From assembly GCA_964630665.1 (NCBI GenBank), contig CAZVVN010000006.1, positions 1 to 64,000 on the forward strand: DNA of 64,000 nucleotides, in the 5' to 3' direction. A program made the translations under genes and the position numbers. Below, in pieces: positions 18,067-39,565 of the stretch (position 1 is its first letter; each line of letters opens with the position of its first letter). The notes under the pieces were generated by a model. It was not told the origin of the DNA, made no database searches, and saw only the letters and a program-made list of their open reading frames with translations. This DNA comes from an uncultured Acidiferrobacteraceae bacterium. Its GTDB lineage: Bacteria; Pseudomonadota; Gammaproteobacteria; Arenicellales; UBA868.

Positions 18067-19005
18067 CTAGAGCAGCTTGAGCATAGCGTCGGCCCCACTG
18101 CTGTCGACCTGGTGACCGGCCTCGACGATAAGGTCCTTGATGACACCGTCGTTGACGATCATGGCATAGCGCCTGGAACGCAGGTTAAGACCCAGAAACC
18201 TCAAGTCTTCGACCATTCCCATTGCCCGGGTGAATTCGCCGTCTCCATCTGCAACCATACTGACCCGACCCTCGACGTTCTGGCTTCGGCCCCAGGCTTG
18301 CATGACAAAAGGATCATTGACAGCCAGACAGATGATGTCGTCGATACCCCGGTCGCGGATCTGATCGGCCTGCCGCACATAGCCCGGCAAGTGCTCTGCA
18401 GAACAGGCCGGTGTATAGGCGCCGGGTACTGCGAACAGAACTATCCTGCGCTGCGAAAAGAGCGCTTTGACGTCCACCGCCTGCGCTGTGTCACTTATAA
18501 GCTGGTAGACCTTCGCGCTCGGAACGGGATCACCGATAGCAAACCGGGCGTCAAGATAACCCAGCAGCGCTTTCATCTCATCACGCAACTGCCCTCTGGA
18601 TGACCATTTGACGAGCTGGCCAGTTGGATTTACCAGGCAAAGACCTGCAGAAACCACCGGTGGAAGACTGCGATCAAGATTCGCCGTAAACGACCCGCCA
18701 GGGTCACTGACCATGTCGAACGGCAGTTGGTACTGCTCAATAAACCTTCTGTTGGTCGCTGCATGATGGCCATTAAGACCGATTATCAGCGTGTTACGCG
18801 AAGTGAATTCCGGATAGTGATCGCGTAACCAATGCCAGTCGTCCGAGAGACCTGCTACGGGGAAATGATCGGTCCTCAGCAGCAACACATGGTGGCCGCG
18901 GTAATCGCTGAGATCCGTCAACACGCCCTGCTGGTTGGGCAACCCGCCAGTCGCTACAGGCGAGGAGCCTTGATTGGAGAACATCCCGCGGGACTCGGCT
19001 CGCAA
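18067..19005 (-). CDS. Tandem redoxin protein: degenerate N-terminal redoxin-like domain plus C-terminal Prx5-type peroxiredoxin
   Basis: The C-terminal half carries FAVPGAYTPACSAEHLPGY, the Prx5/AhpC-TSA peroxidatic Cys motif. The N-terminal half looks redoxin-like but lacks the active-site Cys (HFPVAGLSDD). Confidence 0.6.
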   Translation of the reverse strand: MRAESRGMFSNQGSSPVATGGLPNQQGVLTDLSDYRGHHVLLLRTDHFPVAGLSDDWHWLRDHYPEFTSRNTLIIGLNGHHAATNRRFIEQYQLPFDMVSDPGGSFTANLDRSLPPVVSAGLCLVNPTGQLVKWSSRGQLRDEMKALLGYLDARFAIGDPVPSAKVYQLISDTAQAVDVKALFSQRRIVLFAVPGAYTPACSAEHLPGYVRQADQIRDRGIDDIICLAVNDPFVMQAWGRSQNVEGRVSMVADGDGEFTRAMGMVEDLRFLGLNLRSRRYAMIVNDGVIKDLIVEAGHQVDSSGADAMLKLL

Positions 19006-19010
19006 CTAAA

Positions 19011-19469
19011 TCAGAGCAGTTGGACGCAACGCCTCAAGGCATCGTCTACAGCTTCTTGGTAGGCCGCTTCTTCGGTTTCCCGCTCGTTTCGGTAAACGCC
19101 AGGCACCGGGGGCTCAATCCGGGCCGACCCAAACTGCGCCTTGCGTGAATCCTGCCCGGACAACTCAAGACAGCACAGCACAACGATTTCATCTCCCTCG
19201 CGTCGACGGTCCCGGACCTGGCAGCGCCACTGGTCCGGGAAATGCCGGTCAAGCCAGGCCGACGGACCAAGACTGTCGAGATCATTCTTTTCCGGCCTGA
19301 CCTGCTGCATATCCGCAACCGGTGGTACGCCGGGCGCCGGTTGCCGGTTACGGGCAGACCCGGCGCTGCCGATACCCGATCCATCGTAGAGCGATTCCAG
19401 TTGGCGCCGATTCCCTTCGAGCAGGGTATCGAACGATTGACCGAAGCTTGGCCCGGAGTTAGAACCCAC
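19011..19469 (-). CDS. Small protein with a disordered N-terminus and a C-terminal Rad52-like minidomain, paralogous to the HyuB-fused extensions
   Basis: 152 aa. WLDRHFPDQWRCQV...EIVVLCCLELSG...EAAYQEAVDDALRRCVQLL aligns with the N-extension of HyuB (23164) and the C-extension of HyuB (34549). It sits between the isochorismatase-like and peroxiredoxin genes in a tightly spaced, co-directional string. Confidence 0.5.
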   Translation of the reverse strand: MGSNSGPSFGQSFDTLLEGNRRQLESLYDGSGIGSAGSARNRQPAPGVPPVADMQQVRPEKNDLDSLGPSAWLDRHFPDQWRCQVRDRRREGDEIVVLCCLELSGQDSRKAQFGSARIEPPVPGVYRNERETEEAAYQEAVDDALRRCVQLL

Positions 19470-19480
19470 TTGATCTTCTC

Positions 19481-20224
19481 TTAAGACCTGACAGCCGTCG
19501 GCAGCCTATCCTGCCACCACTGGCGAAAGTCATTATCCGCCACTGCCGCCAACCCACCGGCGTCGACCAGCGCTCCGAGATACTCCAATACGTCCCGCTC
19601 TGACTCGACATCACAATACTTGGCGTCCATGTCAAACAAGTTCGCCTGGTGTGGTCCATCGGCACGGTCACCGACCCCTTCACGTACGACCACAGTCTGA
19701 AAGCCATGCTGCAGAGAATCAACCGCAGAGGCCCGGACACAGCCGCTGGTCGTACAGCCTGTGATGATCACGGTGTCCACGTCGAGTCCGTGGAAGTAGA
19801 CATCCAACTCCGTGCCAAAAAAAGCGCTGGCGAATTTCTTGACAATGACCTGCTCGCCCTCAACCGGTGCGATCCGCTCGTCGATCTCCACCAGCGGCGA
19901 CCCGTTGACCAGAATCGAGAGCGAAGGTACCTTCTTGATGAACACACCAGCATCGCGAAAGTCGGGGTCATAGGCCACCGTGGTGTAAACAACCGGTAGA
20001 CGGCCCCGGCGGAACTCGGCCAGCAGGCGGGATGTGGTGTCCAGTTGCCGTGTGAAGTCCCCACCCAGCGGTGAGTCCGGGTCCGTGAAGCCATTGCTGA
20101 AATCGATGATCAGGAGCGCAGGATTTTGCCCATAGCCCGAGCGACTGGCGAGCCCCTTGGCGAGGTACGACTCGCGGGTGCTGTCCTGCCAGTCATTCAT
20201 GCTGTAAAGAGGGCTGCCTGACAA
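19481..20224 (-). CDS. Isochorismatase-family cysteine hydrolase (N-carbamoylsarcosine amidase-like), cluster 2
   Basis: 247 aa. ITGCTTSGCVRASAVD and ALLIIDFSNGFTDP are close paralog matches to the 12675..13316 product. Confidence 0.75.
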   Translation of the reverse strand: MSGSPLYSMNDWQDSTRESYLAKGLASRSGYGQNPALLIIDFSNGFTDPDSPLGGDFTRQLDTTSRLLAEFRRGRLPVVYTTVAYDPDFRDAGVFIKKVPSLSILVNGSPLVEIDERIAPVEGEQVIVKKFASAFFGTELDVYFHGLDVDTVIITGCTTSGCVRASAVDSLQHGFQTVVVREGVGDRADGPHQANLFDMDAKYCDVESERDVLEYLGALVDAGGLAAVADNDFRQWWQDRLPTAVRS

Positions 20225-20244: not shown

Positions 20245-20811
20245 TCAACCAGGCCCGGATGATGACCTGGGCGGTGTCCAGCGATGGCGCCACCCCAGCC
20301 GGAATGACCGGACAACGCGGTGCAGCAGGTAGAAGAGCACAGCCAGCACTACCAGCACGAACACTGACAGCAACCGGCGGCCGAATGCAGCATCAATCAC
20401 AGAGCCGTCGTTCATCAGGTGTCCACTCAGCATCTCGACGGCCTGTATGGTCGCACCGGCACACAGGATGACGGCAGCTAGAACCGCGATCTGCAGCGTA
20501 TCGAAAATCAGATCCTGAGCGTTCGATTCAGTTACCCCCTGGAAAATACTTTTTCGAAATGACTGCCAGTGAGAGACGACGAAACTGATCACGGCGACCA
20601 GCGAGGCAAACCAGAACAATATGTTGGAGAAGTGAATTCTCGGGATATTGTCGATCAAGTACTGTACGAAAGGCTGGTAGAAAAGCAAGAAAATGATCAG
20701 AATCACGATCACAATCAGCCCAATCCACCGGCCTGGGCTGTGCCACCGACTGCTAGGCTCTTCCATCAGGTATAGGGGCCTCTTGCGGTGCCAGGAACGC
20801 AGAACGCTCAT
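20245..20811 (-). CDS. Small polytopic membrane protein (unknown family), paralog of 32788..33264
   Basis: 188 aa with about 4 predicted TM helices. Shared motifs with the 32788 ORF are FYQPF/FFQPF, GATIQAVE/GATLQAVQ and DAAFGRRL/DADFGRRI. Confidence 0.5.
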   Translation of the reverse strand: MSVLRSWHRKRPLYLMEEPSSRWHSPGRWIGLIVIVILIIFLLFYQPFVQYLIDNIPRIHFSNILFWFASLVAVISFVVSHWQSFRKSIFQGVTESNAQDLIFDTLQIAVLAAVILCAGATIQAVEMLSGHLMNDGSVIDAAFGRRLLSVFVLVVLAVLFYLLHRVVRSFRLGWRHRWTPPRSSSGPG

Positions 20812-21080: not shown

Positions 21081-23150
21081 ATGTCTATCCGCCTCGGCAT
21101 CGACGTTGGAGGGACCTTCACAGACCTGTTGCTTTTTGACGAGGTCAACGAAGTGTTTCATCTTCACAAGACCCCGTCGACACCCGATGACCAGTCGCTG
21201 GCTATCCTGCAGGGCGTTGGCGATCTTCTCGACCAGTCCGGGGTATCTGCCGACCAGGTCCAGTCGCTCCTGCATGGTACGACAGTTGGAACCAACATCG
21301 TTCTCGAGGGGAAAGGGGCCAGAGTCGGCCTGCTGGTCACCGAAAACTTTGAGCAAGTACTGCATCTGGCCAGATCGCAGACACCCGGGCCACTGGCTGG
21401 CTGGATCACCATGCAGAAACCCGATCCCCTGGCTGATCTTGAATTCACCCGGGGAATACCCGAACGGATCAACGCCCGCGGGCAAATTATCCAGCCAATG
21501 GACGAGGCCCATGCCCGACAACTGATCGATGAGTTGGTGAACAAAGGCGCCGAATCGATCACGATTTCGCTGCTGCATGGCTACACAAACCCAACCCATG
21601 AGCGGAAACTTCGTGACATCATAGCGGTCACCTATCCTGATCTGCCCGTCTCGATATCCTCGGACATCCTCCCCGAGTTTCGCGAATACGAACGCACCCT
21701 CGTGACTGTCATGAACGCGTATATACGCCCAGACATGCGCGGATACCTGGCAGGTTTCAAGCAGAAGCTCGAAGCCCTGAATTCCACCCCCAAGCTGCAC
21801 ATTGTCCGCTCGGACAGCGGACTGATGGGTATCGAACATGCGATGGAGTCCCCGGTCTACACGCTGCTGTCAGGCCCCGCCGGCGGTGTCGGCGGGGCAG
21901 CCTACCTGTCCAGACTGACGGGACACCCGGATACGGTCGGCTTCGATATGGGCGGCACATCGACCGACATCTCCCTGATTCGAAACGGGCAGCCCACCGC
22001 ATCCCGGCAGACGTCACTCGGGAGTTACCCGATCAAGATCCCATCGGTCGAAGTCCACAGCGTAGGTGCGGGCGGTGGCTCGATTGCCCACGTCCCGATG
22101 ACCGGAGCTTTACGGGTAGGACCTGAAAGTGCCGGTGCCGTCCCGGGGCCTGCCTGCTACGGCAACGGTGGTACGGCAGCCACGGTGACCGATGCCAACG
22201 TAGTTCTCGGCCGCCTGCCGGAGTACCTGCTCGGCGGGAAAATGCCGCTCGATATCAAGGCAGCAGAAGATGCTGTCGGGGCAGTCGCACGACAACTCGA
22301 TCTGGACGTTTTCGAAGCCGCCCAGGGCATCATCGACATTGTCAATGAGAACATGTTCGGCGCCCTGCGCCTGACCACGGTTCAAAAAGGACTGGACCCG
22401 CGGAACTTCGGCTTGGTGGCGTTCGGTGGCGCTGGCCCGTTGCATGCCAATGCCCTGGCGATTCTCGGGCGGTGCTATCCCGTCATTGTGCCCCCTACGC
22501 CAGGGGTGTTGTCAGCGCTCGGTTTTCTCCAAGCCAGTGTCCGGAACGAAGCCAACCAGAGCATCATCCGGAACCTCTCCGATGTCGCCCCGGAGGAGTT
22601 GGGCAACATCGCATCCCGCCTGACTGATAACATCAGAAACTGGCTCTCTGGAGAAGGCATTGCTGTCAACGACCAGTCCTTGCAGCACGAGATCGACATG
22701 CGCTACCTCCGACAGGGCTATGAACTGTCGCTGCCATTTCAGCCAGAGAAAATCACCCAGGCAACACTGCAGGATCTGGGTGAGCGCTTCAATACCCTGC
22801 ACGAGCAACACTACGGGTTCAAGGTGAACTCGGTCGTGGAGATCGTCAACCTGCGCGTGATCGGCTTGGGTAAGGTTGCCGAGATGAATTCGCCAAAAGC
22901 ACGGCCTGGCAGTGCTGATCCAGCGGCTGCCTTGGCTGGGGAGCGACAGGTTTTCTTCGATGGCGCATCATTTGCTACAAATATCTACGAAAGAAACGGG
23001 TTGACAGCGGGTAATGAGATCACCGGCCCGGCCATCATCAGCCAGACCGATGCGACTACCATGATCCACCCGGATCACGTTGCTACAGTCGATGAGCACC
23101 TGAATATTCTTATCCAGCCCAGGATCCCGGCTACCGAGACCAGACACTAG
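21081..23150 (+). CDS. hyuA: Hydantoinase A / oxoprolinase family protein (HyuA-like), cluster 2
   Basis: 689 aa beginning MSIRLGIDVGGTFTDLLLFDE. It is preceded by a Shine-Dalgarno-like AAAGGAGAGA. Hydantoinase_A core motifs run throughout. Confidence 0.85.
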   Translation: MSIRLGIDVGGTFTDLLLFDEVNEVFHLHKTPSTPDDQSLAILQGVGDLLDQSGVSADQVQSLLHGTTVGTNIVLEGKGARVGLLVTENFEQVLHLARSQTPGPLAGWITMQKPDPLADLEFTRGIPERINARGQIIQPMDEAHARQLIDELVNKGAESITISLLHGYTNPTHERKLRDIIAVTYPDLPVSISSDILPEFREYERTLVTVMNAYIRPDMRGYLAGFKQKLEALNSTPKLHIVRSDSGLMGIEHAMESPVYTLLSGPAGGVGGAAYLSRLTGHPDTVGFDMGGTSTDISLIRNGQPTASRQTSLGSYPIKIPSVEVHSVGAGGGSIAHVPMTGALRVGPESAGAVPGPACYGNGGTAATVTDANVVLGRLPEYLLGGKMPLDIKAAEDAVGAVARQLDLDVFEAAQGIIDIVNENMFGALRLTTVQKGLDPRNFGLVAFGGAGPLHANALAILGRCYPVIVPPTPGVLSALGFLQASVRNEANQSIIRNLSDVAPEELGNIASRLTDNIRNWLSGEGIAVNDQSLQHEIDMRYLRQGYELSLPFQPEKITQATLQDLGERFNTLHEQHYGFKVNSVVEIVNLRVIGLGKVAEMNSPKARPGSADPAAALAGERQVFFDGASFATNIYERNGLTAGNEITGPAIISQTDATTMIHPDHVATVDEHLNILIQPRIPATETRH

Positions 23151-23163
23151 CGAGGAGAGATCG

Positions 23164-25479
23164 GTGAGTAGCAAATCAGCATCACTGGAAGAACTGGTCA
23201 GGGCCAACAAGGCGCAGTTCGACCGGATCTTTTCGACACAGATGGGAACGCCGGATGCACAACCGGGTGACACTGCCGAACCGTCTGAAACCCCGGCTTC
23301 AGTGGCAGAAGACGGTCAGGCTCCCCTGGACAGCAGTATCAGAAAGGTCCTGACCGAACGTTACGGCGACGGCTGGTCGCAGGAGATTGTCGAGCACAGT
23401 ATCGACGGTGACGAGGTCCGGGTCGTGTGCAGACTCGAAGCCGATGGATTGGCCAGTACGCAGCATGGCAACGCCAGGAACAGCGGCAACGTCGGGATCG
23501 CTCTGCAGCGTGCCAGCGACAATGCTCTGGCCCGCTGTTACCGTGAACTGGACCCAGACGGCACCCGAGCAACTGACTCATTTAAGGCGCCTGCGGCTTC
23601 AACATCTTCCCTGCCCCAGGATCTCCTGCCTACCGCTGCTGTCCGTTTAGCGGCCAGCCAGCGACAACGACCGGGGCAGCAGATCGATACAGTCACCCTG
23701 GATCTGATCGAAAACGCTCTCAGGAACGCGCGCCATGAAATGGACGCGGTACTGTTCCGCTCTGCCATGTCCCCAGTCATACGCGAACAGCACGACGAAT
23801 TCCCGATGATCACCGATCGACGGGGGCGAATGATTGTCGGTCAGTTCGGTTCCTACGTCGCCCAGATGCTCCGTGAGAAGAAGTTCGACCTCTCACCGGG
23901 AGACGTGATTCTTCAAAGTGATCCCTACCAGTGCGGCGGTGCGATCAGTCACATCAACGACTGGCTGGTCCTCGTTCCGGTGTTCCACCAGGAGGCTCTG
24001 GTCGGCTTCAGTTCCATGTTCGGACACATGATGGATGTTGGCGGACCAGTCGCCGGCAGTATGCCTACTGGCGCAACCACAATCTATGGGGAAGGCATCC
24101 GAATCCCGCCCATCAAGATCTTTGAGAAAGGCAAAGTCAACCAGGCAGCGCTGGATCTGATCCTCAACAATACCCGAACACCTCAGATGAACTACAGCGA
24201 CCTGATGGCAATCATCGCTGGAAGCCGTGCAGGTGAGAAACGGGTGGTGGAAATCTGTGACCGGTTTGGGCGAGAGACTTATTTTCAGGCCTGCGAGGCC
24301 CTCCTTGACCGTACCCAACAGGCCATGAAACGACTGATCGTCCAAAACCTGCCCACGGAACCCCAGTCATTCGAAGATTATGTCGACGATGACGGCTGTG
24401 GCAACGGCCCGTTCAAAATGAAACTCACACTCTGGCGGGAGGGTGAGCACGCTTTCTTCGACTGGACCGGTACCTCTGACCAGGCACCCGGCCCCATCAA
24501 CTTCTACCTGCACGAAGGTATGTTCAAGATGTTTATCGGGGTCTACATGATCATGGTCTTCGACCCACAGATCCTCTTCAATGACGGGTTCTATGATCTG
24601 GTCCATGTCACCATGCCCACAGGATCCGTACTGCAGCCCGAGTTTCCTGCAGCACTGGGCTGCAGGACCCACGCCCTGGCACGCCAATTCGATGTCCTGG
24701 GCGGTGCACTGAGTCACAAAGCCCCTGAGCTGGCCACTGCAGCGGGCTACGGCTCCAGCCCGCATTTTCTCTACTCTGGCATTGACCGGCAGGGTACCCC
24801 GTTTCAGTTGATGGAGATCCTGTATGGCGGTATTCCCGGCAGACCTGTTGGCGACGGCCTGGATGGGCATTCGTGGTGGCCGCTTTTTGAAAACATTCCG
24901 ACCGAATACCTTGAGATTTATTTCCCTCTGGTGGTCGAAAGCTACGCCAGCATCCGCGACTCCGGCGGCGCTGGCCAGCACCGCGGGGGCAACGGTGTCG
25001 AAAAGATCTACCACATTCTGGAGCCTGGGGAGATCTCGATCCATGACGACCGGCACCAAAGCCAGCCCTGGGGTATTCTCGGAGGCAAACCCGGTGCCTG
25101 TTCAGAGAAATGGATCATCCAGAAAGAGGCAGGGCGTAAAGCACTGTCCTCAAAAGTCGACAATGTGCAGGTCTATCCTGGTGATAGAATCATTTTCAGG
25201 ACCGCCGGCGCCGGCGGCTGGGGTGACCCCCTGGAACGGGAGGTGGGCGCAGTCAGGAACGACGTCGCGCGCAATCTGGTCGGTGTCGATACCGCGCGAC
25301 AGGCGTACGGTGTCATCATCAACGAAAACACCCTCGAGGCTGATGTCAGGCAGACCGAGGAGTTGAGGCAGAGAATGAGGAACAACCGATCCCCGCTGGC
25401 TGTCTTTGACTTTGGCAGCAGGATTGTCGGGGTTTCCCACAGGAATGGGGTCGAATCTGGTGAGCAGGCCCCGGTTTGA
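23164..25479 (+). CDS. hyuB: Hydantoinase B family protein (HyuB-like) with a roughly 170-aa N-terminal extension containing a Rad52-like minidomain, cluster 2
   Basis: 771 aa. The Hydantoinase_B core starts near residue 175 (TLDLIENALRNARHEMDAVLFRSAMSPVIREQHDEFPMI). The N-extension contains LTERYGDGWSQEIVEHSIDGDEVRVVCRLEADGL...ALQRASDNALARCYREL. It follows hyuA after a 13-bp gap. Confidence 0.85.
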   Translation: MSSKSASLEELVRANKAQFDRIFSTQMGTPDAQPGDTAEPSETPASVAEDGQAPLDSSIRKVLTERYGDGWSQEIVEHSIDGDEVRVVCRLEADGLASTQHGNARNSGNVGIALQRASDNALARCYRELDPDGTRATDSFKAPAASTSSLPQDLLPTAAVRLAASQRQRPGQQIDTVTLDLIENALRNARHEMDAVLFRSAMSPVIREQHDEFPMITDRRGRMIVGQFGSYVAQMLREKKFDLSPGDVILQSDPYQCGGAISHINDWLVLVPVFHQEALVGFSSMFGHMMDVGGPVAGSMPTGATTIYGEGIRIPPIKIFEKGKVNQAALDLILNNTRTPQMNYSDLMAIIAGSRAGEKRVVEICDRFGRETYFQACEALLDRTQQAMKRLIVQNLPTEPQSFEDYVDDDGCGNGPFKMKLTLWREGEHAFFDWTGTSDQAPGPINFYLHEGMFKMFIGVYMIMVFDPQILFNDGFYDLVHVTMPTGSVLQPEFPAALGCRTHALARQFDVLGGALSHKAPELATAAGYGSSPHFLYSGIDRQGTPFQLMEILYGGIPGRPVGDGLDGHSWWPLFENIPTEYLEIYFPLVVESYASIRDSGGAGQHRGGNGVEKIYHILEPGEISIHDDRHQSQPWGILGGKPGACSEKWIIQKEAGRKALSSKVDNVQVYPGDRIIFRTAGAGGWGDPLEREVGAVRNDVARNLVGVDTARQAYGVIINENTLEADVRQTEELRQRMRNNRSPLAVFDFGSRIVGVSHRNGVESGEQAPV

Positions 25480-25509: not shown

Positions 25510-28095
25510 TTGAGAACGGGGATTTCACCCATGTCAATTGAAACGTTGATCACACTGGTGATCCTGGCCGTCATTGCGGTCGCGATCTTCTACATCATCT
25601 CTGTCTGGGTCTACAAAAGGGCCCCGGCCAACATGGGTTTTATACGGACGGGGTTCGGCGGAACCAAGGTCTGCCTGGGCCAGGGGGCGATGGTGCTGCC
25701 GGTCTTCCATGAAGTCAGCTGGGTATCACTGGAGACCATAAAGCTGATTGTCAGCCGCTCCCGTGACCAGGCGATACTGACCTCAGACAAGATCCGTGTC
25801 GACGTGGTAGCCGAACTCTACACCCATGTCGGACACACGGAAGAGGACTTATTGACCGCCAGCCGTAGCCTCGGAGAGAAGACCTTCGACGCCGACAACG
25901 TCCGGAACCTTCTGGAGGCAAAGATCATCAGCGCCTTGCGCAGCTATGCAGCGACCAAGACACTGAACGAGTTGCACGAAAACCGAGACACCTTCGCAAA
26001 AGACATCAAGAGCCAGGTCCGCGACAGTTTCCAGGCCAATGGCCTGAACCTCGAAGAGGTCACCATCGTGACAATGGAGCAAACCGGCAAGGAGTATTTC
26101 AAGACCGATAACGTGTTCGATGCCGAAGGGCTCAAGATCATCACGGCGATCACCTCCAAGGCCAAACGCGAAGTTCACGACACCGAGAAGAAAGCCAGTG
26201 TCGCTATTCGTCAGAAAGAACTCGATACCCAACTCGAGCTGCTCGAGATCGAACGCCAGGAGGCCTTTGCCAAGGCCAATCAGGATAAAGCAGTGTCCAA
26301 TGAGCAGGCCCTGCGGGTTGGTGAAAAACAGCGTTACGTCCTTGAGCAGAAAATGGCGGTCGAACAGAAAGAAATCGAGAACGAACAGACGCTGGAGCAA
26401 CTTCGGACCGACCGGGATGTCGCGATCATCGAAGAGGCTCGTAAGCGTGAAATCGCCGAGATTGAGAAAACCCGGATCACCGAACAACAAAGGCGGGACC
26501 GGGAGATCCATCTAATCTCCAAGGCCAAGGAGGAGGAACTCGCCAATATCCAGCGGAACCTGGATCTGGAAAAAGCCGAGAAGGATCGGCAAATCGAACT
26601 TCACGTAAAATCAAAAGAAGAACAACTCGCCCAGATCCAGCGTGAACAGGCACTGGAGATTGCAGAGAAGGACAAGCAAATCCAGTCCATCGCAAACGAC
26701 CGGCAACGTCAGGAGGCTGAAATTCTCCGACAGACTGCGATCACGACCAGCGAGGAACAGGCCCGTGAAGAAAGGGTCAAGGCCAGTGAAATTGCCGAAG
26801 TCGCGATTCAACAGCAGAAACTTGCGAGCCGTCTGTCCCTGCTGGATGTGGACAAGAATGACGCTTTTGCAACAGCGACCCAGGAAAAAGAAATTGCCGA
26901 AGAGCAGGCTAGGATCCTGACCCAGAAGCAGTTGTTTTTGCTCGAGCAGAAGTGGCAGGTGGAGCAGGAAGAAATCCACAAGGAACTCTCTGTCGAACAG
27001 GCGCAGATAGACAAGGAAGCACAGGTCCTGCTGGAATCACAGAAAAAAGAAACGGCCGAAGTGCAACGCTCACTGGCCCGACAATCCGAGGAACGCAATC
27101 GGGAAATCGCCCTGGCGGCCAAGGAAATGGAGCTCGAGCAGGCCGAGGCGCGTCGCCTTGAGGCCACCGCGGCCCGGCAGAAAGCCGAGCACGAGGCCGA
27201 ATCGGTGCGGCACGTCGCGGATGCTGAGCGGCAACGTATCATTGACCTGATAGAGGCAGAGAACAGCGCCGAGACCCGGCGGGTGGAGGAAGAAAACAAG
27301 GCGCAGATCTCTAGAATGCATATGCTCGCCCAGGCCGAAGCCCGCAAAGAATCAGCACAGCGTGAGGCGGATGCCACCCTGACGAGAGCCAGGGCCTCCA
27401 GTGAGGCGCAGCAAATCAATGCGCTCGGTATTGAAAAAGAAGCTGCCGCCAAAGGCCGCGCCGAGATGGAGATCGAGCAACTGCGGGTTGACAACACCCA
27501 GCGCATGCTCGAGGCGGAGGCCAGTGGTATCGAGGCCAAAGCCGACGCGCTCAAGAAGTACAACCTGGCGGCGACTTTCCTGGAGCTTTCCAAGCTGCAT
27601 ATCGAGGCCGAACGTGATGTGCGCAGCGATCAGGCCAAAGCCATGGGCAATGCCCTGCAGGGTGCCCAGATCCGCATGTACGGCGGCAGCGACGATGGGA
27701 CCATAGACAACATTCGGAGCCTGTTTACCTCGGGCTTCGGCGTCGGTGAGGCCCTAGAAGGTCTTGCCCAGTCGATGCCGGAGGGCCTGCGGCAACGCTT
27801 TGCAGAAAACGGTATCCGTGGCCTGTTCGGTGCCCCCGGAGGTGCCGGGCGCTTCCAGCACGCGGTGACCGAAATTGGAGAGCTTCTGACGCAGACTTTG
27901 AAAACAAAGAAAAGCCGGGAAGAAACAGATTTCAGGGACGCCATGCTGCAGCTCGAAGAGGCCGCGGGATCGGATAAGTCCAAGTTAGAAGCAGTTTCGC
28001 TGCTGACTGATTTCAACCAGGCCGGGGTGTTCGATGAAGTGTCGTTCGAGACCGTCTGGAGCCTATTGCTGGCAACCTCGAAAAGCGTCAACTAA
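25510..28095 (+). CDS. Flotillin / SPFH (band 7) family protein with N-terminal TM helix and a very long coiled-coil region (861 aa)
   Basis: It has an N-terminal hydrophobic helix (IETLITLVILAVIAVAIFYII). The SPFH domain follows (GFIRTGFGGTKV...IVTMEQTGKEYF). About 450 aa of heptad-like E/K/Q/R/A-rich repeats come next, then a flotillin-like C-terminus. The gene sits 30 bp after hyuB. Confidence 0.8.
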   Translation: MRTGISPMSIETLITLVILAVIAVAIFYIISVWVYKRAPANMGFIRTGFGGTKVCLGQGAMVLPVFHEVSWVSLETIKLIVSRSRDQAILTSDKIRVDVVAELYTHVGHTEEDLLTASRSLGEKTFDADNVRNLLEAKIISALRSYAATKTLNELHENRDTFAKDIKSQVRDSFQANGLNLEEVTIVTMEQTGKEYFKTDNVFDAEGLKIITAITSKAKREVHDTEKKASVAIRQKELDTQLELLEIERQEAFAKANQDKAVSNEQALRVGEKQRYVLEQKMAVEQKEIENEQTLEQLRTDRDVAIIEEARKREIAEIEKTRITEQQRRDREIHLISKAKEEELANIQRNLDLEKAEKDRQIELHVKSKEEQLAQIQREQALEIAEKDKQIQSIANDRQRQEAEILRQTAITTSEEQAREERVKASEIAEVAIQQQKLASRLSLLDVDKNDAFATATQEKEIAEEQARILTQKQLFLLEQKWQVEQEEIHKELSVEQAQIDKEAQVLLESQKKETAEVQRSLARQSEERNREIALAAKEMELEQAEARRLEATAARQKAEHEAESVRHVADAERQRIIDLIEAENSAETRRVEEENKAQISRMHMLAQAEARKESAQREADATLTRARASSEAQQINALGIEKEAAAKGRAEMEIEQLRVDNTQRMLEAEASGIEAKADALKKYNLAATFLELSKLHIEAERDVRSDQAKAMGNALQGAQIRMYGGSDDGTIDNIRSLFTSGFGVGEALEGLAQSMPEGLRQRFAENGIRGLFGAPGGAGRFQHAVTEIGELLTQTLKTKKSREETDFRDAMLQLEEAAGSDKSKLEAVSLLTDFNQAGVFDEVSFETVWSLLLATSKSVN

Positions 28096-32787: not shown

Positions 32788-33264
32788 TTATGCCCTGACC
32801 GGTCGAATCAGCTTCAGCAGCCAGAAAATAACACAGAATATACCCGTGATGATCACCAGGGCGATCGTCGCTGCAATACGCCTGCCGAAATCCGCGTCAA
32901 ACCCATGGCCGCTCTGCAACAGATAAGTACAGACGTTCTGGACCGCCTGCAGGGTCGCACCACCGCTCAACAGAATCGCCGTGAAAGTCGATCCTCTCAA
33001 AGAGGTCAGAACCATCGATTCGATGCTGCGCTGCTGGACGATATGTACCTTATAGGCGTGCCAGTGAAATGTGCAGAATCCGATGATGCCGATTATCAGA
33101 GCAGCCCAGAAAATCGCATTGCTGTAGGTCACCCCATTGAGGACCAGAGTAAAGAGGTCCTCAAATGGCTGGAAGAAATAAAGGAACACCAGGACGAGAA
33201 TGAGCAGGAGAAATCCTACCAGCGTCCAGAACCACTGCCATCCTGTCATATTCACTGCACCCAA
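32788..33264 (-). CDS. Small polytopic membrane protein (unknown family), paralog of 20245..20811
   Basis: 158 aa with about 4 TM helices. It shares motifs with the 20245 ORF (see that entry). It is last in the string isochorismatase-hyuA-hyuB-membrane-membrane. Confidence 0.5.
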   Translation of the reverse strand: MGAVNMTGWQWFWTLVGFLLLILVLVFLYFFQPFEDLFTLVLNGVTYSNAIFWAALIIGIIGFCTFHWHAYKVHIVQQRSIESMVLTSLRGSTFTAILLSGGATLQAVQNVCTYLLQSGHGFDADFGRRIAATIALVIITGIFCVIFWLLKLIRPVRA

Positions 33265-33432: not shown

Positions 33433-34476
33433 TCAAGGAATAGCCCTCAACAGCAACACAGCAAAAAGAATGACAAAAATACTGTCCCGTGCCGGTCCAC
33501 CACCGTGACGATCAGTACCCCGGGTCGCGATCAGTGCAATGATCTCGATAATCAGGAATATCAGCGCAAGTACGGCGAACGGCCATACGCTGGACCACCA
33601 GGACACGTCCTCCGATACTTCCAGTCCACGGTGCATCCGCCAAATTTGAAGCAACAACGGGATGATCGTGAAGTAACCATAGGCCACCAGGAACCGGTAG
33701 CGGGTCACCTTTCGATCGAGTAGCCAGAAGGTAAAAAAGAACAAGACAAGATTGAGTAAATCCCAAAACAGAACGTTGTAGTTTTCATTGCCGCCGTGTC
33801 TGACCAGGTTTAGGAACCCCAGAAACAGCAGAAAGGTCGCCGCATCGCAGAACACCCACTCCCTGAATGGTTCTCCTTTACCCTTGATCGACCAAGAGCG
33901 TGTCGCTTTGTCGAACAGCAGTACCAGCGACACTCCGAGAACTGCGGGATAAAGCAGGTAGACCACAAGCCGGTACTGATCGACCTTGTCGACAAAGGTC
34001 CAGTTCAACACCAGAAACGCGAGAACAAGTGCCGCCAGGCCCAGAAGCCGGGTTCCGCCCGGTGTCTGCGATAGTTCCGGATCGGTCGTATCCGCTACCG
34101 CGCCGGCGTCACGGGTTGTGGATCGCCCTCGGACGATCATGCCGACCAGGAAAGCAATCAGTGCGACCGTGCCGATGACCAGCATCGCAACCAGAAATAC
34201 CAGGGAACGTGTATCTCCCCGCCAGGAATCGCCACCCTCCATTCCACCGGGATAGAGGAAGACAATAATCACAATCACTGCAACGACGACCGCTACCAGG
34301 GCGAGAACTGCCAGCAGATATTCGAACCACCGGGCCCCGGCACGGGCAGATCCTGGAGCGGTAGCCCGCGCACCGCTTGCGACCCGCCGTACGACCAGGT
34401 GGACACAGAACGCAACAAGCGCTGCAGCCGCGATCGCGGCCATGACCAGGATAAATATCAGGGATTGTGTTTCCAA
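33433..34476 (-). CDS. Polytopic integral membrane protein (about 9-10 TM, unknown family)
   Basis: 347 aa, highly hydrophobic with regularly spaced TM-length segments. It sits directly downstream of hyuB (cluster 3) on the same strand with a 72-bp gap. Confidence 0.5.
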   Translation of the reverse strand: METQSLIFILVMAAIAAAALVAFCVHLVVRRVASGARATAPGSARAGARWFEYLLAVLALVAVVVAVIVIIVFLYPGGMEGGDSWRGDTRSLVFLVAMLVIGTVALIAFLVGMIVRGRSTTRDAGAVADTTDPELSQTPGGTRLLGLAALVLAFLVLNWTFVDKVDQYRLVVYLLYPAVLGVSLVLLFDKATRSWSIKGKGEPFREWVFCDAATFLLFLGFLNLVRHGGNENYNVLFWDLLNLVLFFFTFWLLDRKVTRYRFLVAYGYFTIIPLLLQIWRMHRGLEVSEDVSWWSSVWPFAVLALIFLIIEIIALIATRGTDRHGGGPARDSIFVILFAVLLLRAIP

Positions 34477-34548
34477 ACGTTTGCCTCCGACTCAGGAACT
34501 CAAGATTTCACGACAGGCAGGTAGTCTGAAACCCTTCGATCCCCGCAG

Positions 34549-36711
34549 TCAGTTATCTCGCAGAACTTTCTGCGCACATTTGAACAGGCTCTGGTCGGCG
34601 GCAGCCTGAAGGCGTGCGCCGATCGATGATGCGCTGGGGTTCTCATCGGTACCGGTTTCGCTGGCATAGGTGCCGTTGGCCCGCAACTCACCACGCACTT
34701 CGGCAAAACCTCGGCGAGAGGAGTAATAAACGACGTCAAAACTCCAGGCCTCACCAAACGCCTCGCGCAGGGATTCGATCGTTGAATCACGGCTCTGGCT
34801 TACACCAGAAACCGCTGTTTCAACGGCGGTCGACCTTCGGCCGGGTGCAGTCCGCTGGGCTGTTTCAGAGGTCGCAAGCCGTGATTCTCTGAGCGCAACC
34901 TCTTCGGGGCTGCGATCCCGGCTTTCACTCAGGGTCCCAGCCGGCTGACTGCGCATCTGGGCGCGGAGCGATTCGGTGGCAGTGTCATTGACCCTTTCTG
35001 CAGCCAGATCAACAACCACACCATAGGCCGCCTTAGCGTGTTCCACCGTACAGAAATCGTCCAGTACATCTTCTAGAACCTGCGACGCTGGACGTTCCAG
35101 TGGGTCGCCGTATCCGCCGCCACACGGTGCGTAGAACGCGTGAACCTCACCGGCTTTGATCTTCAGGCCGGAGAACTTGGCCGGCATCTGTTGAATGTCA
35201 TCCGGATCATCGACGTTGTAGATCTCGACCTTGCCGGTTGTTCCCGGCCAACCGCCGAATATGCCCCAAGGCACGTCATGGTGCCGTTCGTTTTCGTGGG
35301 TGATGAAACCGTCGGTGAGCACGCGCTGGGACTTGACCACACCGATACCACCGCGAAAGCGCCCGGCTCCGGGCAGCACATCGTCGCGAAGCTCATAACG
35401 GTCACAGATCATCGGCAAGTGCATCGCGAGGTCTTCCAGCGGATTGTTACGCGTATTGGCCATCAGGTTATCTATGCTGTCCGGGCCATCGGAGAGCGGC
35501 CGACCTCCATAGGCGCCCTCGTTGACTTCCAGAAAGACCCAGTAATCACCCGATGGCCTGACTCCCGAATAAGAGACAAAAGACAGCGACGCGGAACTGC
35601 CAGCGATGATCTGATCGGGTAGAACCGGCGCCAGAGCCTTATAAATGAGGTCGATCACCCGGTTGACCTGGGTAAACCTTGCTTCTGCGGCAGCAGGAAA
35701 CTCAGGGTTGTAGATCGAACCTTTGGGCGCGATCACCTTGATCGGTCGGAACGAACCTTCGTTGGACGGCACCTGGATCTCCGAGGTTTCGGCATCCAGC
35801 AGCAAAGAGCGGATCGCGCAGAAACATGCGACTTTAGTCGAACCTTCAAATGGCACGTTAAATCCGGTCTCGACCTGGTCTGATGAACCGGTCAGGTCGA
35901 TCTCAATCGAATCGCCTTGAACCCGCACGCAGACCTTGATGGGCAAGCGTACGTCGCGGTTTTTGCCGTCATCATCCAGATAACCTTCCGCACGGTATTC
36001 ACCATCCGGAATCTTGTCGATCTTCTGCCTCAGTATCCGCTCGGTGTAGTCCATCAGCTGGCCGGTGGCTGCCAGGATCGTGTCCTTCCCATAACGCTCC
36101 ATGAGTTCGACAAAGCGCCGCACACCCAGCTTGGCAGAGGCGATCTGAGCCTCTATATCACTTTGCAACTGTTTGGCAGCGCGGCTGTTTCGTCCCAGAA
36201 ACTCCCACAGGGCGTCATTGCGGACACCCCTTTCATAGAGCTTGGTACCGGCAAACAGCATGCCCTCGGCATAGACATCCGGTATATCGATGATCAACCC
36301 CGGGGTGGCCGCTCCGATATCTAGATGATGCGCGGTGTTAGCTGCAAAACCGACCAGCTGGTCCTGATAAAAACAGGGAATCACAATGGCAAGGTCAGGC
36401 GAGTGACTGGCTCCGAAGTAGGGGTGGTTGTGAAGCACCACGTCGCCCTCGTTCCAGACACCACCTTGCAGTGACTCCTGGATGCCGTACAGGTAACCAG
36501 GCAGAGAACCAATGTGCAACGGTGTCGACTCCGATTCACACAAAGTGTTGAAATCAGTATCAAACAGGCCGGCACCGAGATCCTGCGATTCGCGAATGAT
36601 CGACGAGAAGGACATCCGGTAAAGGATATGGCCCATCTCCTCGGCGATGGTATCCAGCGCGCCGCTGATGACCTGTAAAGTGATCGGATCTAGTTCGTCA
36701 GCTGCCATCAC
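34549..36711 (-). CDS. hyuB: Hydantoinase B family protein (HyuB-like) with a roughly 130-aa C-terminal extension containing a Rad52-like minidomain, cluster 3
   Basis: 720 aa. The Hydantoinase_B core is marked by DPITLQVISGALDTIAEEMGHILYRMSFSSIIRESQDLGAGLF... and GGGYGDPLERP. The C-terminal tail contains LREAFGEAWSFDVVYYSSRRGFAEVRGELRANG...LQAAADQSLFKCAQKVL. Confidence 0.85.
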   Translation of the reverse strand: MMAADELDPITLQVISGALDTIAEEMGHILYRMSFSSIIRESQDLGAGLFDTDFNTLCESESTPLHIGSLPGYLYGIQESLQGGVWNEGDVVLHNHPYFGASHSPDLAIVIPCFYQDQLVGFAANTAHHLDIGAATPGLIIDIPDVYAEGMLFAGTKLYERGVRNDALWEFLGRNSRAAKQLQSDIEAQIASAKLGVRRFVELMERYGKDTILAATGQLMDYTERILRQKIDKIPDGEYRAEGYLDDDGKNRDVRLPIKVCVRVQGDSIEIDLTGSSDQVETGFNVPFEGSTKVACFCAIRSLLLDAETSEIQVPSNEGSFRPIKVIAPKGSIYNPEFPAAAEARFTQVNRVIDLIYKALAPVLPDQIIAGSSASLSFVSYSGVRPSGDYWVFLEVNEGAYGGRPLSDGPDSIDNLMANTRNNPLEDLAMHLPMICDRYELRDDVLPGAGRFRGGIGVVKSQRVLTDGFITHENERHHDVPWGIFGGWPGTTGKVEIYNVDDPDDIQQMPAKFSGLKIKAGEVHAFYAPCGGGYGDPLERPASQVLEDVLDDFCTVEHAKAAYGVVVDLAAERVNDTATESLRAQMRSQPAGTLSESRDRSPEEVALRESRLATSETAQRTAPGRRSTAVETAVSGVSQSRDSTIESLREAFGEAWSFDVVYYSSRRGFAEVRGELRANGTYASETGTDENPSASSIGARLQAAADQSLFKCAQKVLRDN

Positions 36712-36732: not shown

Positions 36733-38808
36733 TTAGTTGCTGCGCTCAATCGTCAGATTGCCGAACACACCGGTATGCGCTACGTAACCGGGCGGGATCA
36801 GTATGGTGGAGTTATGCTGTATGACGATCGACGGACCGGTGAGGATATGGCCCGCCCGCAATCGGCCCCGATCATATCGAGGCGTCTGTACGGCCCGTCC
36901 GTCGTCAAAAACCGTTTCGCGATGATAGAGAAGCGCTTCCTCCACCGTGCTGCCACCGGCCTCTTCCAGACTCGAAACCTTCAAAGGCGTCACCCGCTCC
37001 ATACCAATTACCCGAATGGTGATCAACTCCACCTCCCCGTCCTCGAACGCATAGCCATAGTCCAGACGGTGCTGCGCGTGAAAACCGGCGACGATGTTCG
37101 GCACGTTGTCCTGGGTCACTTCACCTTCGGGTATGTCCGCTCTCAACTCAAAGCCCTGCCCGTGATACCGGCACTCGGCAATGCGCTGAAACTGCTGACG
37201 GGCGGCCGGAACACCGTCGTTCTCAAGGTCTTTCCGGCACTCGGCTACCAGATCGCTGACCAGGGTGTTCATTCTCTCTATCGTGTCGGCGGAAACCTCC
37301 GACAGTGAACTGATCAGGGAACGTGCATGCTCGTACTGCATGTCGGTCTGCAGCAGGCCCATCGCGGCCGTGATCCCCGGAGCCACAGGGACGATGACGT
37401 TCTTTGCCGACACCGCCTCGGCCAAGGCAACGCCGTGCAGAGGCCCGGCTCCGCCGAACGGCATCAGGGAGAATTCCCGTGGATCGACACCGCGGGCCAC
37501 CGAGTTCGAACGGATCGCCAGAGCCATGTTCGAGTTGATTACCTTGATAACCCCGAGGGCCGCATCAGTCACAGAGACCCCGAGCGGCCGGGCAATTTTG
37601 TTCTCAACTGCGCGCCTGGCAAGTTCCTCATCAAGAAGAAGGTCACCGCCCAGCATCTTGTCTGCATCCAGACGGCCAAGAACCACTTGGGCATCGGTTA
37701 CCGTCGGTTCCTCGCCGCCAAGCCCGTAACAGGCGGGGCCCGGGTCAGCCCCTGCCGAACGGGGTCCGACATGGAAACCACCGGCAGAATCGACATAAGC
37801 AATCGAGCCACCGCCGGCACCGATGGTTACCAGATCGATCATCGGGACCAGTATCGGGTGACCGCTGATGTAGGAATCCCGGGCATTCATGATCTTTATC
37901 TGGCCGCCGGGTATGGTACTGATATCTGCAGAAGTTCCACCAATGTCGACAGTGATCATGTTCTCACTGCCGGACCAGAGCCCTTCTGACTTTCCGCCGA
38001 TCACACCCCCGGCGGGCCCGGACATCAGCATGTTGACCGCTCGACGTGAACTCGCCTCGATGGTTGAAATACTGCCGTTCGACTGCATGACCCGAAGATT
38101 CGCCCTGAAACCTTCACTGCTCAGTTTTCCCTGCAGGTTGCTCAGGTAGAAGGAGGTGCTTGGACCGACAAATGCGTTCATTGCGGCAGTCGAAAAACGC
38201 TCGTATTCACGCAGCACGTTGGCGACATCGGAGGATGTACAGACAAACACGCCTGGCATCTCCTGTTCGACGATCGCCCGGGCCTGGCGTTCGTGGCTGT
38301 CGTTGAGAAAGGAAAAAAGAAACCCGATGACGACAGACTGTATCCCCCGTTTCTTGAACAACGCCACCGCTTCAAGCACTTCGTTTTCATTCAGCGGGGT
38401 CTCGACTTCTCCGGTGGGTGGCATGATCCTTTCTGTCACCGGGATCCGATTGCGCCGCTTGACCAGTGCCCGGCTCTGCCAGGGTACGTCGAAATGCAGG
38501 GAGAAATTATGTGGCCGCTTGTGCCGCCCGATATGAAGAATGTCCCGGAAATTCCGGGTCGTGATCATCCCGACCTCGGCTCCGTTATGCTCGAGCGTGA
38601 TGTTCGTCGCGACCGTTGTGCCATGGACAATCAACTCGATCTCGTCAGGCTTGACCTGGGCCTGCTCACACAACTCGGAAAGCCCCTTGAGAACACCTTC
38701 AGACTGATCCTGCGGGGTGCTCGCGACCTTGTGAAAGTAGACCCCGTGGTCGGCTTCGAGCACCAGATCGGTGTTCGTACCTCCGACATCAACGCCTACT
38801 CTAGCCAT
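36733..38808 (-). CDS. hyuA: Hydantoinase A / oxoprolinase family protein (HyuA-like), cluster 3
   Basis: 691 aa beginning MARVGVDVGGTNTDLVLEAD. Hydantoinase_A core motifs run throughout. It sits 21 bp upstream of hyuB. Confidence 0.85.
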   Translation of the reverse strand: MARVGVDVGGTNTDLVLEADHGVYFHKVASTPQDQSEGVLKGLSELCEQAQVKPDEIELIVHGTTVATNITLEHNGAEVGMITTRNFRDILHIGRHKRPHNFSLHFDVPWQSRALVKRRNRIPVTERIMPPTGEVETPLNENEVLEAVALFKKRGIQSVVIGFLFSFLNDSHERQARAIVEQEMPGVFVCTSSDVANVLREYERFSTAAMNAFVGPSTSFYLSNLQGKLSSEGFRANLRVMQSNGSISTIEASSRRAVNMLMSGPAGGVIGGKSEGLWSGSENMITVDIGGTSADISTIPGGQIKIMNARDSYISGHPILVPMIDLVTIGAGGGSIAYVDSAGGFHVGPRSAGADPGPACYGLGGEEPTVTDAQVVLGRLDADKMLGGDLLLDEELARRAVENKIARPLGVSVTDAALGVIKVINSNMALAIRSNSVARGVDPREFSLMPFGGAGPLHGVALAEAVSAKNVIVPVAPGITAAMGLLQTDMQYEHARSLISSLSEVSADTIERMNTLVSDLVAECRKDLENDGVPAARQQFQRIAECRYHGQGFELRADIPEGEVTQDNVPNIVAGFHAQHRLDYGYAFEDGEVELITIRVIGMERVTPLKVSSLEEAGGSTVEEALLYHRETVFDDGRAVQTPRYDRGRLRAGHILTGPSIVIQHNSTILIPPGYVAHTGVFGNLTIERSN

Positions 38809-38869: not shown

Positions 38870-39565
38870 TCATGCGACCTCATGTTGCGAGCCCGATTCG
38901 ACCGTGGCAAGGTAGTCCAGCACCCGGCTCAGTGGCTCGACATCGCCGAACTTGGCGTCTATATCGAACAGATTCCATTCAGTCACTGCCGGTACGCGGT
39001 CTCCTACGGCCTCTCGGACCACGATCGGCCGAAACCCCTCGGCAATCGCGTCTTCTGTGGTGTGTCTCACACAACCGGCCATCGTGACGCCGGTAATGAT
39101 TACTGTATCCACGTCCTGTGCCCGCAGGAAACCTGCCAGATAGGTTCCGTGAAATCCACTGGCACGTTTCTTCTCTATCACCATCTCGTTGTCGAGCGGC
39201 GCAATTCGGTCATCGATAGCACAAGTTTCACTGCCGGCCTGCAGTAACTCCGCCGGAATCTTCTTGTGCCACAGACCCATGTCCGTGGGATCGCCTTGGG
39301 TGACATTGTAGGCGGTGGTCGTGAACACGATCGGAATACCAGCGGCGCGGGACGCTTTGAGCAAAGCCTGGGTAGAAGGGATGATGACATCCATGTTGTC
39401 GCAGAAAAAGACATTGCCGGGGCGGGTCCAGGCATTGGCAAGGTCGATATTCAAAAGTGCCGGACGCTTGCCGAATCCGATCCGCCGCTGGAATCCCCGC
39501 TCCTTGTACAGCGCCGAATCAATGGCGAAGATCTTGTCTAATGCATCCTGAATCTCGTCTGACAT
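38870..39565 (-). CDS. Isochorismatase-family cysteine hydrolase, closest in motif content to N-carbamoylsarcosine amidase (CSHase), cluster 3
   Basis: 231 aa. Motifs are ERGFQRRIGFGKRPALLNIDLANAWTRPG, IDDRIAPLDNEMVIEKKRASGF and ITGVTMAGCVRHTTEDAIAEGFRPIVVRE. They match my recollection of the Arthrobacter CSHase family, including the GCVRH catalytic-Cys context. This is unverified. Confidence 0.75.
   Translation of the reverse strand: MSDEIQDALDKIFAIDSALYKERGFQRRIGFGKRPALLNIDLANAWTRPGNVFFCDNMDVIIPSTQALLKASRAAGIPIVFTTTAYNVTQGDPTDMGLWHKKIPAELLQAGSETCAIDDRIAPLDNEMVIEKKRASGFHGTYLAGFLRAQDVDTVIITGVTMAGCVRHTTEDAIAEGFRPIVVREAVGDRVPAVTEWNLFDIDAKFGDVEPLSRVLDYLATVESGSQHEVA

Follow-up and report, generated by a model that had tools for sequence, protein, structure and literature searches.

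We analysed a 64,000-nucleotide stretch of DNA (hereafter the window; positions 1 to 64,000 of contig CAZVVN010000006.1, assembly GCA_964630665.1) from an uncultured Acidiferrobacteraceae bacterium, concentrating on HyuB3, a beta subunit of the hydantoinase B/oxoprolinase family that carries an additional C-terminal tail. This tail is an autonomous, conserved, self-folding domain whose ancestor was a single-strand-annealing protein (SSAP) of the Rad52/Rad22 type, bacterial or phage in origin, and it belongs to a family of hairpin-less Rad52-derived domains found in a setting of metabolism and membranes rather than of DNA. The domain, referred to here as mini-Rad52, consists of the sheet motif of Rad52 alone, in which a curved sheet of three strands follows a helix and is crossed by a second, long helix. 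It is present in three copies in the window, as a stand-alone protein and fused to the N-terminus of HyuB2 and the C-terminus of HyuB3, and forms part of a conserved multi-copy system comprising two HyuA/HyuB pairs and membrane proteins.

The tail of HyuB3 is one of three related domains

HyuB3 is a member of Pfam family Hydantoinase_B (PF02538), matching the model over residues 8-537 with an E-value of 1.1e-152. Its closest NCBIfam model is caprolactamase CapB, for which the score is far below the cut-off, and it does not reach the equivalog cut-offs set for caprolactamase and for acetophenone carboxylase. As judged from these models, the HyuA/HyuB enzymes of the window are nearest to caprolactamase subunits, yet far under the equivalog cut-offs. 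The alignment of HyuB3 with its paralogue HyuB2 reaches approximately residue 588 and leaves a tail of ~132 amino acids, in keeping with the initial annotation, which had described a C-terminal tail of roughly 130 amino acids and quoted a peptide that is present in it. The AlphaFold2 (AF2) model of the tail comprises a helix (residues 635-652), three strands (656-666, 669-678 and 681-689) and a second helix (697-719), so that the interval initially proposed for the minidomain (34552..34790, residues 642-720) corresponds to the folded domain without the first half of helix 1. An overlapping 96-amino-acid open reading frame (ORF) in another frame (34500..34790) was taken as spurious. The domain is joined to the catalytic body by a linker in which no column is conserved among 22 aligned HyuB3 orthologues, with a median length of 44 amino acids and a maximum of 97 across orthologues, and rich in alanine (17 %), proline (15 %) and serine (11 %).

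Comparison of the HyuB3 tail with the N-terminal extension of HyuB2 gave a BLASTP E-value of 1e-8 (30 % identity over 79 amino acids) and comparison of that extension with the stand-alone protein an E-value of 2e-7, while the direct match of the tail to the stand-alone protein reached only 0.002; the three copies are therefore linked transitively through the N-terminal extension. When all six reading frames of the window were translated and searched with a hidden Markov model (HMM) built from the three copies, precisely these three were recovered, and the match ranked after them had an E-value of 0.69, which bears out the earlier proposal that one minidomain occurs three times. The same profile retrieved 115 proteins, nearly all of them stand-alone proteins of ~148 amino acids from marine metagenomes. 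The N-terminal extension of HyuB2, also present in an orthologue from a related locus (L001), corresponds to an entire stand-alone protein fused to HyuB, since both the domain and a preceding N-terminal helix are common to them. This helix (consensus sFDxxLxxNRxxLdxLY) occurs in the stand-alone and N-fused forms and is absent from the C-fused form; it is predicted to be amphipathic, with F13, D14, L17 and L27 nearly invariant, and may constitute a separate docking peptide. Residues 33-56 of the stand-alone protein are disordered.

Similarity of composition only, which had been raised as grounds for rejecting the relationship, is not what we observed. Residues G653, W656, F658, V672, G698 and C712 of the tail are invariant in the 22 HyuB3 orthologues, and among 31 stand-alone proteins with 27-46 % identity to the window copy W81, A136, A140, A144 and C148 are invariant and L73, V97, G114, A116 and L145 nearly so; the likeness of the three copies is therefore real and not compositional. 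Among the 120 best HyuB3 relatives listed, 119 carry the C-terminal domain, the exception being a 555-amino-acid fragment. Source annotations of these proteins read 'hypothetical' or 'N-methylhydantoinase B' and leave the extra domain unmentioned. A metagenomic protein of 347 amino acids (P0348), considered as a fusion of isochorismatase and minidomain, was set aside, since the two genes are adjacent and their junction is Arg-rich and out-of-frame-like; a frameshift or an artefact of gene calling is the probable cause.

The domain has a Rad52-type fold and ancestry

The AF2 model of the HyuB3 tail has a mean predicted local distance difference test score (pLDDT) of 88 and a predicted template modelling score of 0.77, and the domain of the stand-alone protein has a pLDDT of 84-90. 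This, together with the existence of a free form, agrees with the initial view of an autonomous domain rather than a catalytic insertion. In both models a first helix is followed by three long antiparallel strands and by a long helix at the C-terminus (alpha-beta-beta-beta-alpha), and Foldseek places eight RAD52 chains at the top of its ranking. The arrangement is that of the Rad52 'beta-sheet motif', a three-stranded curved sheet crossed by a long alpha-helix.

We searched 1.84 billion representative proteins with a profile of the family and obtained 512 matches at E ≤ 1e-3, counted as representative clusters at 50 % identity in which full-length Rad52-like and hairpin-less minidomain forms are taken together. 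Among them is a block of ~200-290-residue proteins. Ten matches of ~210-290 amino acids (E 1e-10 to 3e-8) were scanned against Pfam, and all ten exceeded the gathering score of PF04098 (Rad52_Rad22), with E-values from 4e-9 to 7e-17. Alignment by hhalign of 51 stand-alone proteins with 27 Rad52-like proteins drawn from the family-profile matches, 10 of them confirmed by PF04098 and the rest picked by motif, gave a probability of 99.6 % and an E-value of 2.9e-24 over 86 columns. An N-fused HyuB homologue (P0282) scores 19.5 bits on PF04098, for which the cut-off is 20.3. As judged by these profile comparisons, the relation to PF04098 is one of superfamily-level homology and not of membership by the curated cut-off. 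The nature of the motif L-x-E-x-[FY]-G-[DE]-x-W-S, by which the initial annotation had tied the three copies together, had gone unrecognised: as L-x-E-x-[FY]-G-x-x-W-S it is the bacterial Rad52-like signature LNEAFGxxWSFE. This supplies an ancestry for the domain and, in self-association as a ring or filament, a lead as to its mechanism.

These data bear on two further explanations, to which we give almost no credence, namely that the domain is a cargo-loading tag of the encapsulin type or that its alpha-beta-beta-beta-alpha fold is convergent and dsRBD-like, with no Rad52 ancestry. The cargo-tag analogy was drawn in the initial annotation from the terminal position of the domain on paralogous enzymes, but it fails: the domain is folded and 85 amino acids long, where a short peptide would be expected, and encapsulin or microcompartment shell genes are absent among the ORFs of the window. 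A convergent origin is largely refuted by the profile link to PF04098 (E 1e-10) and the hhalign result. The fold of the dsRBD and of the ribosomal uS5 N-domain scores under RAD52 in both models, and the strands and C-terminal helix of mini-Rad52 are longer, as in Rad52, which places it outside the dsRBD.

Features required for DNA annealing have been lost while the fold core is kept

A survey of 10,280 SSAPs defined the superfamily by a beta-sheet motif and a beta-hairpin motif, both of which are essential for annealing, and assigned to the outer face of the sheet the setting of the curvature of rings and filaments (PMC11783212). We aligned human RAD52 (the sequence identical to PDB 1h2i) with the 27 bacterial Rad52-like proteins and with 51 stand-alone, 25 C-fused and 7 N-fused copies. 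In every group the fold core is retained (RAD52 positions L75, F79, W84, G125, A146 and L151, and the bacterial cysteine at position 154). The beta-hairpin region containing R55 and Y65 is deleted from all stand-alone, N-fused and C-fused copies; in the bacterial Rad52-like proteins the equivalent positions are R in 23/27 and Y in 25/27. Similarly K144, D149 and K152, invariant in all 27 bacterial Rad52-like proteins, are variable in the mini-Rad52 copies, and the G159 segment GxGLxLY is absent from them, the stand-alone protein stopping just ahead of it. Net charge and pI did not discriminate between the groups, as the bacterial Rad52-like cores are acidic too. Mini-Rad52 most likely no longer anneals DNA, because it is without the hairpin, without the GxGLxLY segment and without those conserved aromatic and basic residues with which Rad52 proteins bind single-stranded DNA (ssDNA).

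Binding of nucleic acid could in principle have been retained in another form, for ssDNA or RNA in a Rad52- or dsRBD-like manner, for instance in autoregulation through the operon mRNA. The Rad52-superfamily ancestry of the domain is compatible with such a role, as is the basic residue often kept at the position equivalent to RAD52 R153, and a precedent exists in RDM1, where a small RAD52 motif resides in a nucleic-acid-binding protein (PMC11783212). We nevertheless consider it improbable, given that the hairpin essential for annealing (PMC11783212) is deleted, that the positions corresponding to R55, Y65, K144 and K152 have been lost or vary, that neither a dsRBD sequence motif nor any Pfam match was found, and that the gene context in alpha- and gammaproteobacteria is purely metabolic or membrane-related.

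Mini-Rad52 belongs to a conserved system with HyuA/HyuB pairs and membrane proteins

Using an alignment of HyuB3 orthologues as query we scanned one genome per species. HyuB3 relatives were present in 309 genomes, and the 80 best loci were then examined by means of HMMs. The minidomain was found in 60 of these 80 loci, and three copies, beside two HyuA/HyuB pairs, in 30. In the remaining 20 the HyuB3 orthologues end at ~590-600 residues (the stop codon was checked in L086); these come from Oceanicola granulosus HTCC2516, Marinibaculum, Sedimentitalea, Pelagibius, Kiloniellaceae and similar sources. Tail-less orthologues are 73-77 % identical in the catalytic body and thus as similar as the tail-bearing ones. 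The tail-bearing genomes found were all metagenome-assembled genomes (MAGs), while cultured relatives lack the tail.

The occurrence of such tail-less orthologues in isolates, with equal similarity of the catalytic body, counts against the module being an intramolecular accessory domain, which we hold to be very unlikely. In that case it would fold back onto the HyuA/HyuB heterotetramer to which it belongs, serving as a lid or in stabilisation or regulation in the manner of the small additional subunits of acetone and acetophenone carboxylases, and would not connect one complex with another. The long, variable and non-conserved linker and the placement of the domain at either terminus similarly disfavour a fixed docking site, although in many loci the stand-alone gene lies directly upstream of HyuA3, as might be expected of an accessory to that enzyme.

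Presence of the minidomain coincides with that of three membrane proteins, the small sTM2 and sTM3 and the multi-pass TM347, none of which has a Pfam or NCBIfam match. A small membrane protein (sTM) or TM347 is encoded in 46 of the 60 minidomain-bearing loci, and the 20 tail-less loci contain neither these proteins nor any copy of the minidomain (Fisher's test p 5.5e-6 for 61 loci with full flanks, the counts ignoring phylogeny). TM347 lies beside the C-fused HyuB in related loci and never beside tail-less orthologues. The idea that TM347 arose as a duplicated sTM was rejected (E 0.12 to 4).

Gene order is likewise conserved. The flotillin-like gene directly follows the N-fused HyuB at every locus examined (L001-L004, L006, L087 and L088); these SPFH proteins are unusually long (854-945 amino acids) and are followed by an ABC ATPase. 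Two of these N-fused HyuBs, from different 50 %-identity clusters, have a small membrane gene upstream and, directly after them, a long gene of the Band_7 type and then an ABC ATPase. Contigs of the Acidiferrobacteraceae type, with a stand-alone protein of only ~45 % identity, keep the arrangement around HyuB2, and the order isochorismatase then stand-alone gene is conserved across related loci. On a distant metagenomic contig, with a stand-alone protein of 28 % identity, both clusters are contiguous, one strand encoding flotillin, N-fused HyuB and HyuA and the other sTM, isochorismatase, the stand-alone protein, HyuA, C-fused HyuB, a TM347-like protein and sTM. This arrangement recurs in each three-copy alphaproteobacterial MAG locus whose gene map was inspected. 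The flotillin and membrane proteins put forward as candidate partners in the initial annotation fit this pattern, both in the co-variation with membrane genes and in the position of the flotillin-like gene after the N-fused HyuB. The window itself is 98 % identical at the protein level to PBDS01000026.1 (L007), a contig of the marine MAG 'Proteobacteria bacterium SP340', and P0116, a 100 % match, is carried on a 77-kb contig.

Such a gene pattern could also arise if the domain were a one-to-one docking adaptor, each copy binding a specific partner (sTM2, sTM3, TM347 or the flotillin-like protein) and not the other copies, so that each HyuA/HyuB enzyme is anchored separately at the membrane beside the ABC transporter. 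The window contains three domain copies and three membrane proteins without a named family, each fused HyuB has membrane genes of its own adjacent to it, flotillin follows the N-fused HyuB every time, and among the loci analysed the membrane proteins occur solely in those bearing the domain (46/60 versus 0/20). However 14 loci retain both a C-fused HyuB and the stand-alone protein with membrane proteins undetected, and the conservation of a free soluble copy beside a fused one would be left unexplained. We therefore regard a docking adaptor as unlikely.

A proposed role in association of the enzymes

We consider the chances evenly balanced that mini-Rad52 acts as a self- or hetero-association module that tethers both enzymes and the free subunit, probably near their membrane partners. 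The three paralogous modules would associate with one another, homo- or hetero-oligomerically, and so tether two ATP-dependent HyuA/HyuB enzymes (of the lactamase or carboxylase type) and the free subunit into a higher-order assembly, which would probably adjoin the co-inherited sTM2, sTM3, TM347 and flotillin-like protein. We infer both self-association, by extrapolation from the superfamily, and proximity to the membrane. An association role appears the most likely because what is retained of the fold is the part through which subunits pack together in rings and filaments of the Rad52 type, because the fused copies sit on flexible linkers and the domain occurs free or at either terminus, and because the paralogous copies are co-inherited. 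The placement at opposite termini of paralogous HyuBs had been recorded in the initial annotation, where a targeting, oligomerisation or docking role was proposed; the linkers by which the domain is attached are variable and rich in Ala, Pro and Ser.

A number of observations count against this interpretation or against the Rad52 ancestry on which it builds. The segments that contribute to closure of the Rad52 ring, the hairpin and the C-terminal cap, are missing, and the domain may be monomeric. Certain loci have a single fused copy with no other within 10 kb (L088), membrane proteins were undetected at 14 of the 49 minidomain-bearing loci with full flanks, and the co-occurrence counts take loci as independent, ignoring phylogeny. 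The basic residue often kept at the R153-equivalent position in mini-Rad52 copies belongs here too. The three window copies have no Pfam match even at E ≤ 10 and none in NCBIfam and PHROGs scans, and searching PDB sequences with the family profile gave only chance-level matches, leaving eukaryotic RAD52 unreached. Alignment of the family with the single human RAD52 sequence by hhalign was non-significant (probability 0.24), the FG..W motif being aligned at RAD52 residues 74-89. Given these misses to Pfam and to eukaryotic RAD52, the link to Rad52 runs via bacterial intermediates and structure.

More tentatively, and doubtful in our view, mini-Rad52 subunits could form mixed rings or a filament that serves as the scaffold of a membrane-associated HyuA/HyuB metabolon, docked on the flotillin-like and novel membrane proteins beside the ABC importer. 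Free, N-fused and C-fused subunits would be mixed in such rings, and the Rad52 fold would have been exapted from DNA repair. If this is correct, the Rad52 superfamily would for the first time have been found to serve a function unrelated to nucleic acids, and enzymes would be recruited to bacterial flotillin platforms by a new route.

Comparison with known systems

Bacterial and phage Rad52-like SSAPs (PF04098, Sak-type) share with mini-Rad52 the helix, the three-stranded sheet and the crossing helix, as well as the signature LNEAFGxxWSFE ... V.VLG.L ... QFG ... AA.DAL.KC and its conserved cysteine. They differ in possessing a hairpin (R.G..G..L.YVEG), the GxGLxLY segment and a C-terminal tail, all three of which mini-Rad52 lacks, and in residing in phage or recombination modules, whereas mini-Rad52 is found in metabolic operons and fused to enzymes. 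To the N-terminal domain of human and yeast RAD52 and to yeast Mgm101 (PDB 5jrb, 8tkq, 8g3g and 9yi6) it shows 9-19 % identity with no direct sequence match, and it corresponds to approximately half of the RAD52 N-terminal domain. The eukaryotic protein RDM1 retains a small RAD52 motif beside an RRM and has a function distinct from that of RAD52 (PMC11783212). It is the nearest precedent for the survival of such a motif as part of a larger multidomain protein, although RDM1 still binds nucleic acid and is fused to an RRM, whereas the partners of mini-Rad52 are ATP-dependent hydantoinase-type enzymes. HyuA/HyuB-type enzymes that assemble into large hetero-oligomers can be encoded together with small accessory proteins, such as the epsilon subunit of acetophenone carboxylase and the gamma subunit of acetone carboxylase (PMC5214803). 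We found no sequence or fold relationship between either subunit and mini-Rad52. Neither is known as Rad52-like.

A full-text literature search returned nothing relevant on Rad52 together with hydantoinase, oxoprolinase, caprolactamase or acetone carboxylase, or on flotillin together with hydantoinase, and enzyme fusions are unmentioned in the SSAP survey (PMC11783212). The Rad52 superfamily, regarded as one of DNA annealases, gains a large unnamed branch that has the sheet motif only, has lost the DNA-binding residues and is located in metabolic operons, its members being free or fused at either end of enzymes of the hydantoinase/oxoprolinase class. Should its members self-associate, they would offer a testable case of an oligomerisation fold from DNA repair re-used as an enzyme scaffold. 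The family also gives a handle on the role of widespread uncharacterised HyuA/HyuB clusters, of flotillin-like partners and of three families of membrane proteins in marine and soil proteobacteria.

Gene neighbourhood in the window

Between 18 and 40 kb of the window, one strand carries the double peroxiredoxin, the stand-alone protein, the isochorismatase-family hydrolase and sTM2, and the opposite strand HyuA2, the N-fused HyuB2, the 861-amino-acid flotillin-like protein and an ABC ATPase. Two ABC permeases, a binding protein, sTM3, TM347, HyuB3, HyuA3, a second isochorismatase and a luciferase-like oxygenase then follow (Table 1).

Table 1 Features of the HyuB2 and HyuB3 clusters and of the mini-Rad52 copies within the window
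Feature	Coordinates	Strand	Evidence or remark
Tandem double peroxiredoxin (Redoxin/AhpC-TSA x2), immediately downstream of stand-alone gene	18067..19005	-	
Stand-alone mini-Rad52 protein, 152 aa	19011..19469	-	HMM / BLASTP
Stand-alone protein, domain, residues 61-152	19014..19289	-	
Stand-alone protein, N-helix, residues 10-28	19386..19442	-	
Isochorismatase-family hydrolase, immediately upstream of stand-alone gene	19481..20224	-	
sTM2, small membrane protein, divergent from HyuA2	20245..20811	-	
HyuA2, upstream of HyuB2	21081..23150	+	
HyuB2, 771 aa with 173-aa N-extension	23164..25479	+	Pfam
Conserved N-terminal helix motif SLEELVRANKAQFDRIF of HyuB2, common to stand-alone protein	23182..23238	+	Alignment
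mini-Rad52 domain within HyuB2 N-extension, residues ~55-132	23326..23559	+	BLASTP E 1e-8 to C-tail; HMM match
Long flotillin-like SPFH protein, 861 aa, directly downstream of HyuB2	25510..28095	+	Band_7 E 2e-16
sTM3, small membrane protein, paralogue of sTM2	32788..33264	-	BLASTP E 3e-22
TM347, multi-pass membrane protein without named family, directly downstream of HyuB3	33433..34476	-	
HyuB3, hydantoinase B/oxoprolinase-family beta subunit with C-terminal mini-Rad52 domain, 720 aa	34549..36711	-	PF02538
C-terminal mini-Rad52 domain of HyuB3, residues 635-720, ~85 aa	34552..34809	-	AF2 model
Low-complexity linker of HyuB3, residues ~589-634, catalytic body to domain, ~45 aa	34810..34947	-	Zero conserved columns
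HyuA3, alpha subunit partnering HyuB3	36733..38808	-	NCBIfam caprolactamase CapA-like, E 4e-173, below cut-off
Second isochorismatase, paralogue of 19481..20224	38870..39565		

The order of the peroxiredoxin and stand-alone genes is kept in marine gammaproteobacterial contigs, and the minidomain family has an invariant cysteine in its last helix. A second flotillin, canonical in type (Band_7 and Flot, 536 amino acids), is encoded at 59179..60789 (-), so that the SPFH scaffolds of the organism number at least two. A further HyuB/HyuA pair, the third (630 and 790 amino acids; 8324..10216 and 10242..12614, both on the minus strand) is without a minidomain and adjoins isochorismatase, HMGL-like, CoA-transferase, hydrolase and amidase genes, an arrangement kept in L001-L004. 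Lastly, a 780-amino-acid ORF (52811..55153, -) within a branched-chain-type ABC transporter operon combines an ABC-transporter ATPase (residues 22-165) with a full amidase domain (356-764) and is either an odd fusion or a read-through.

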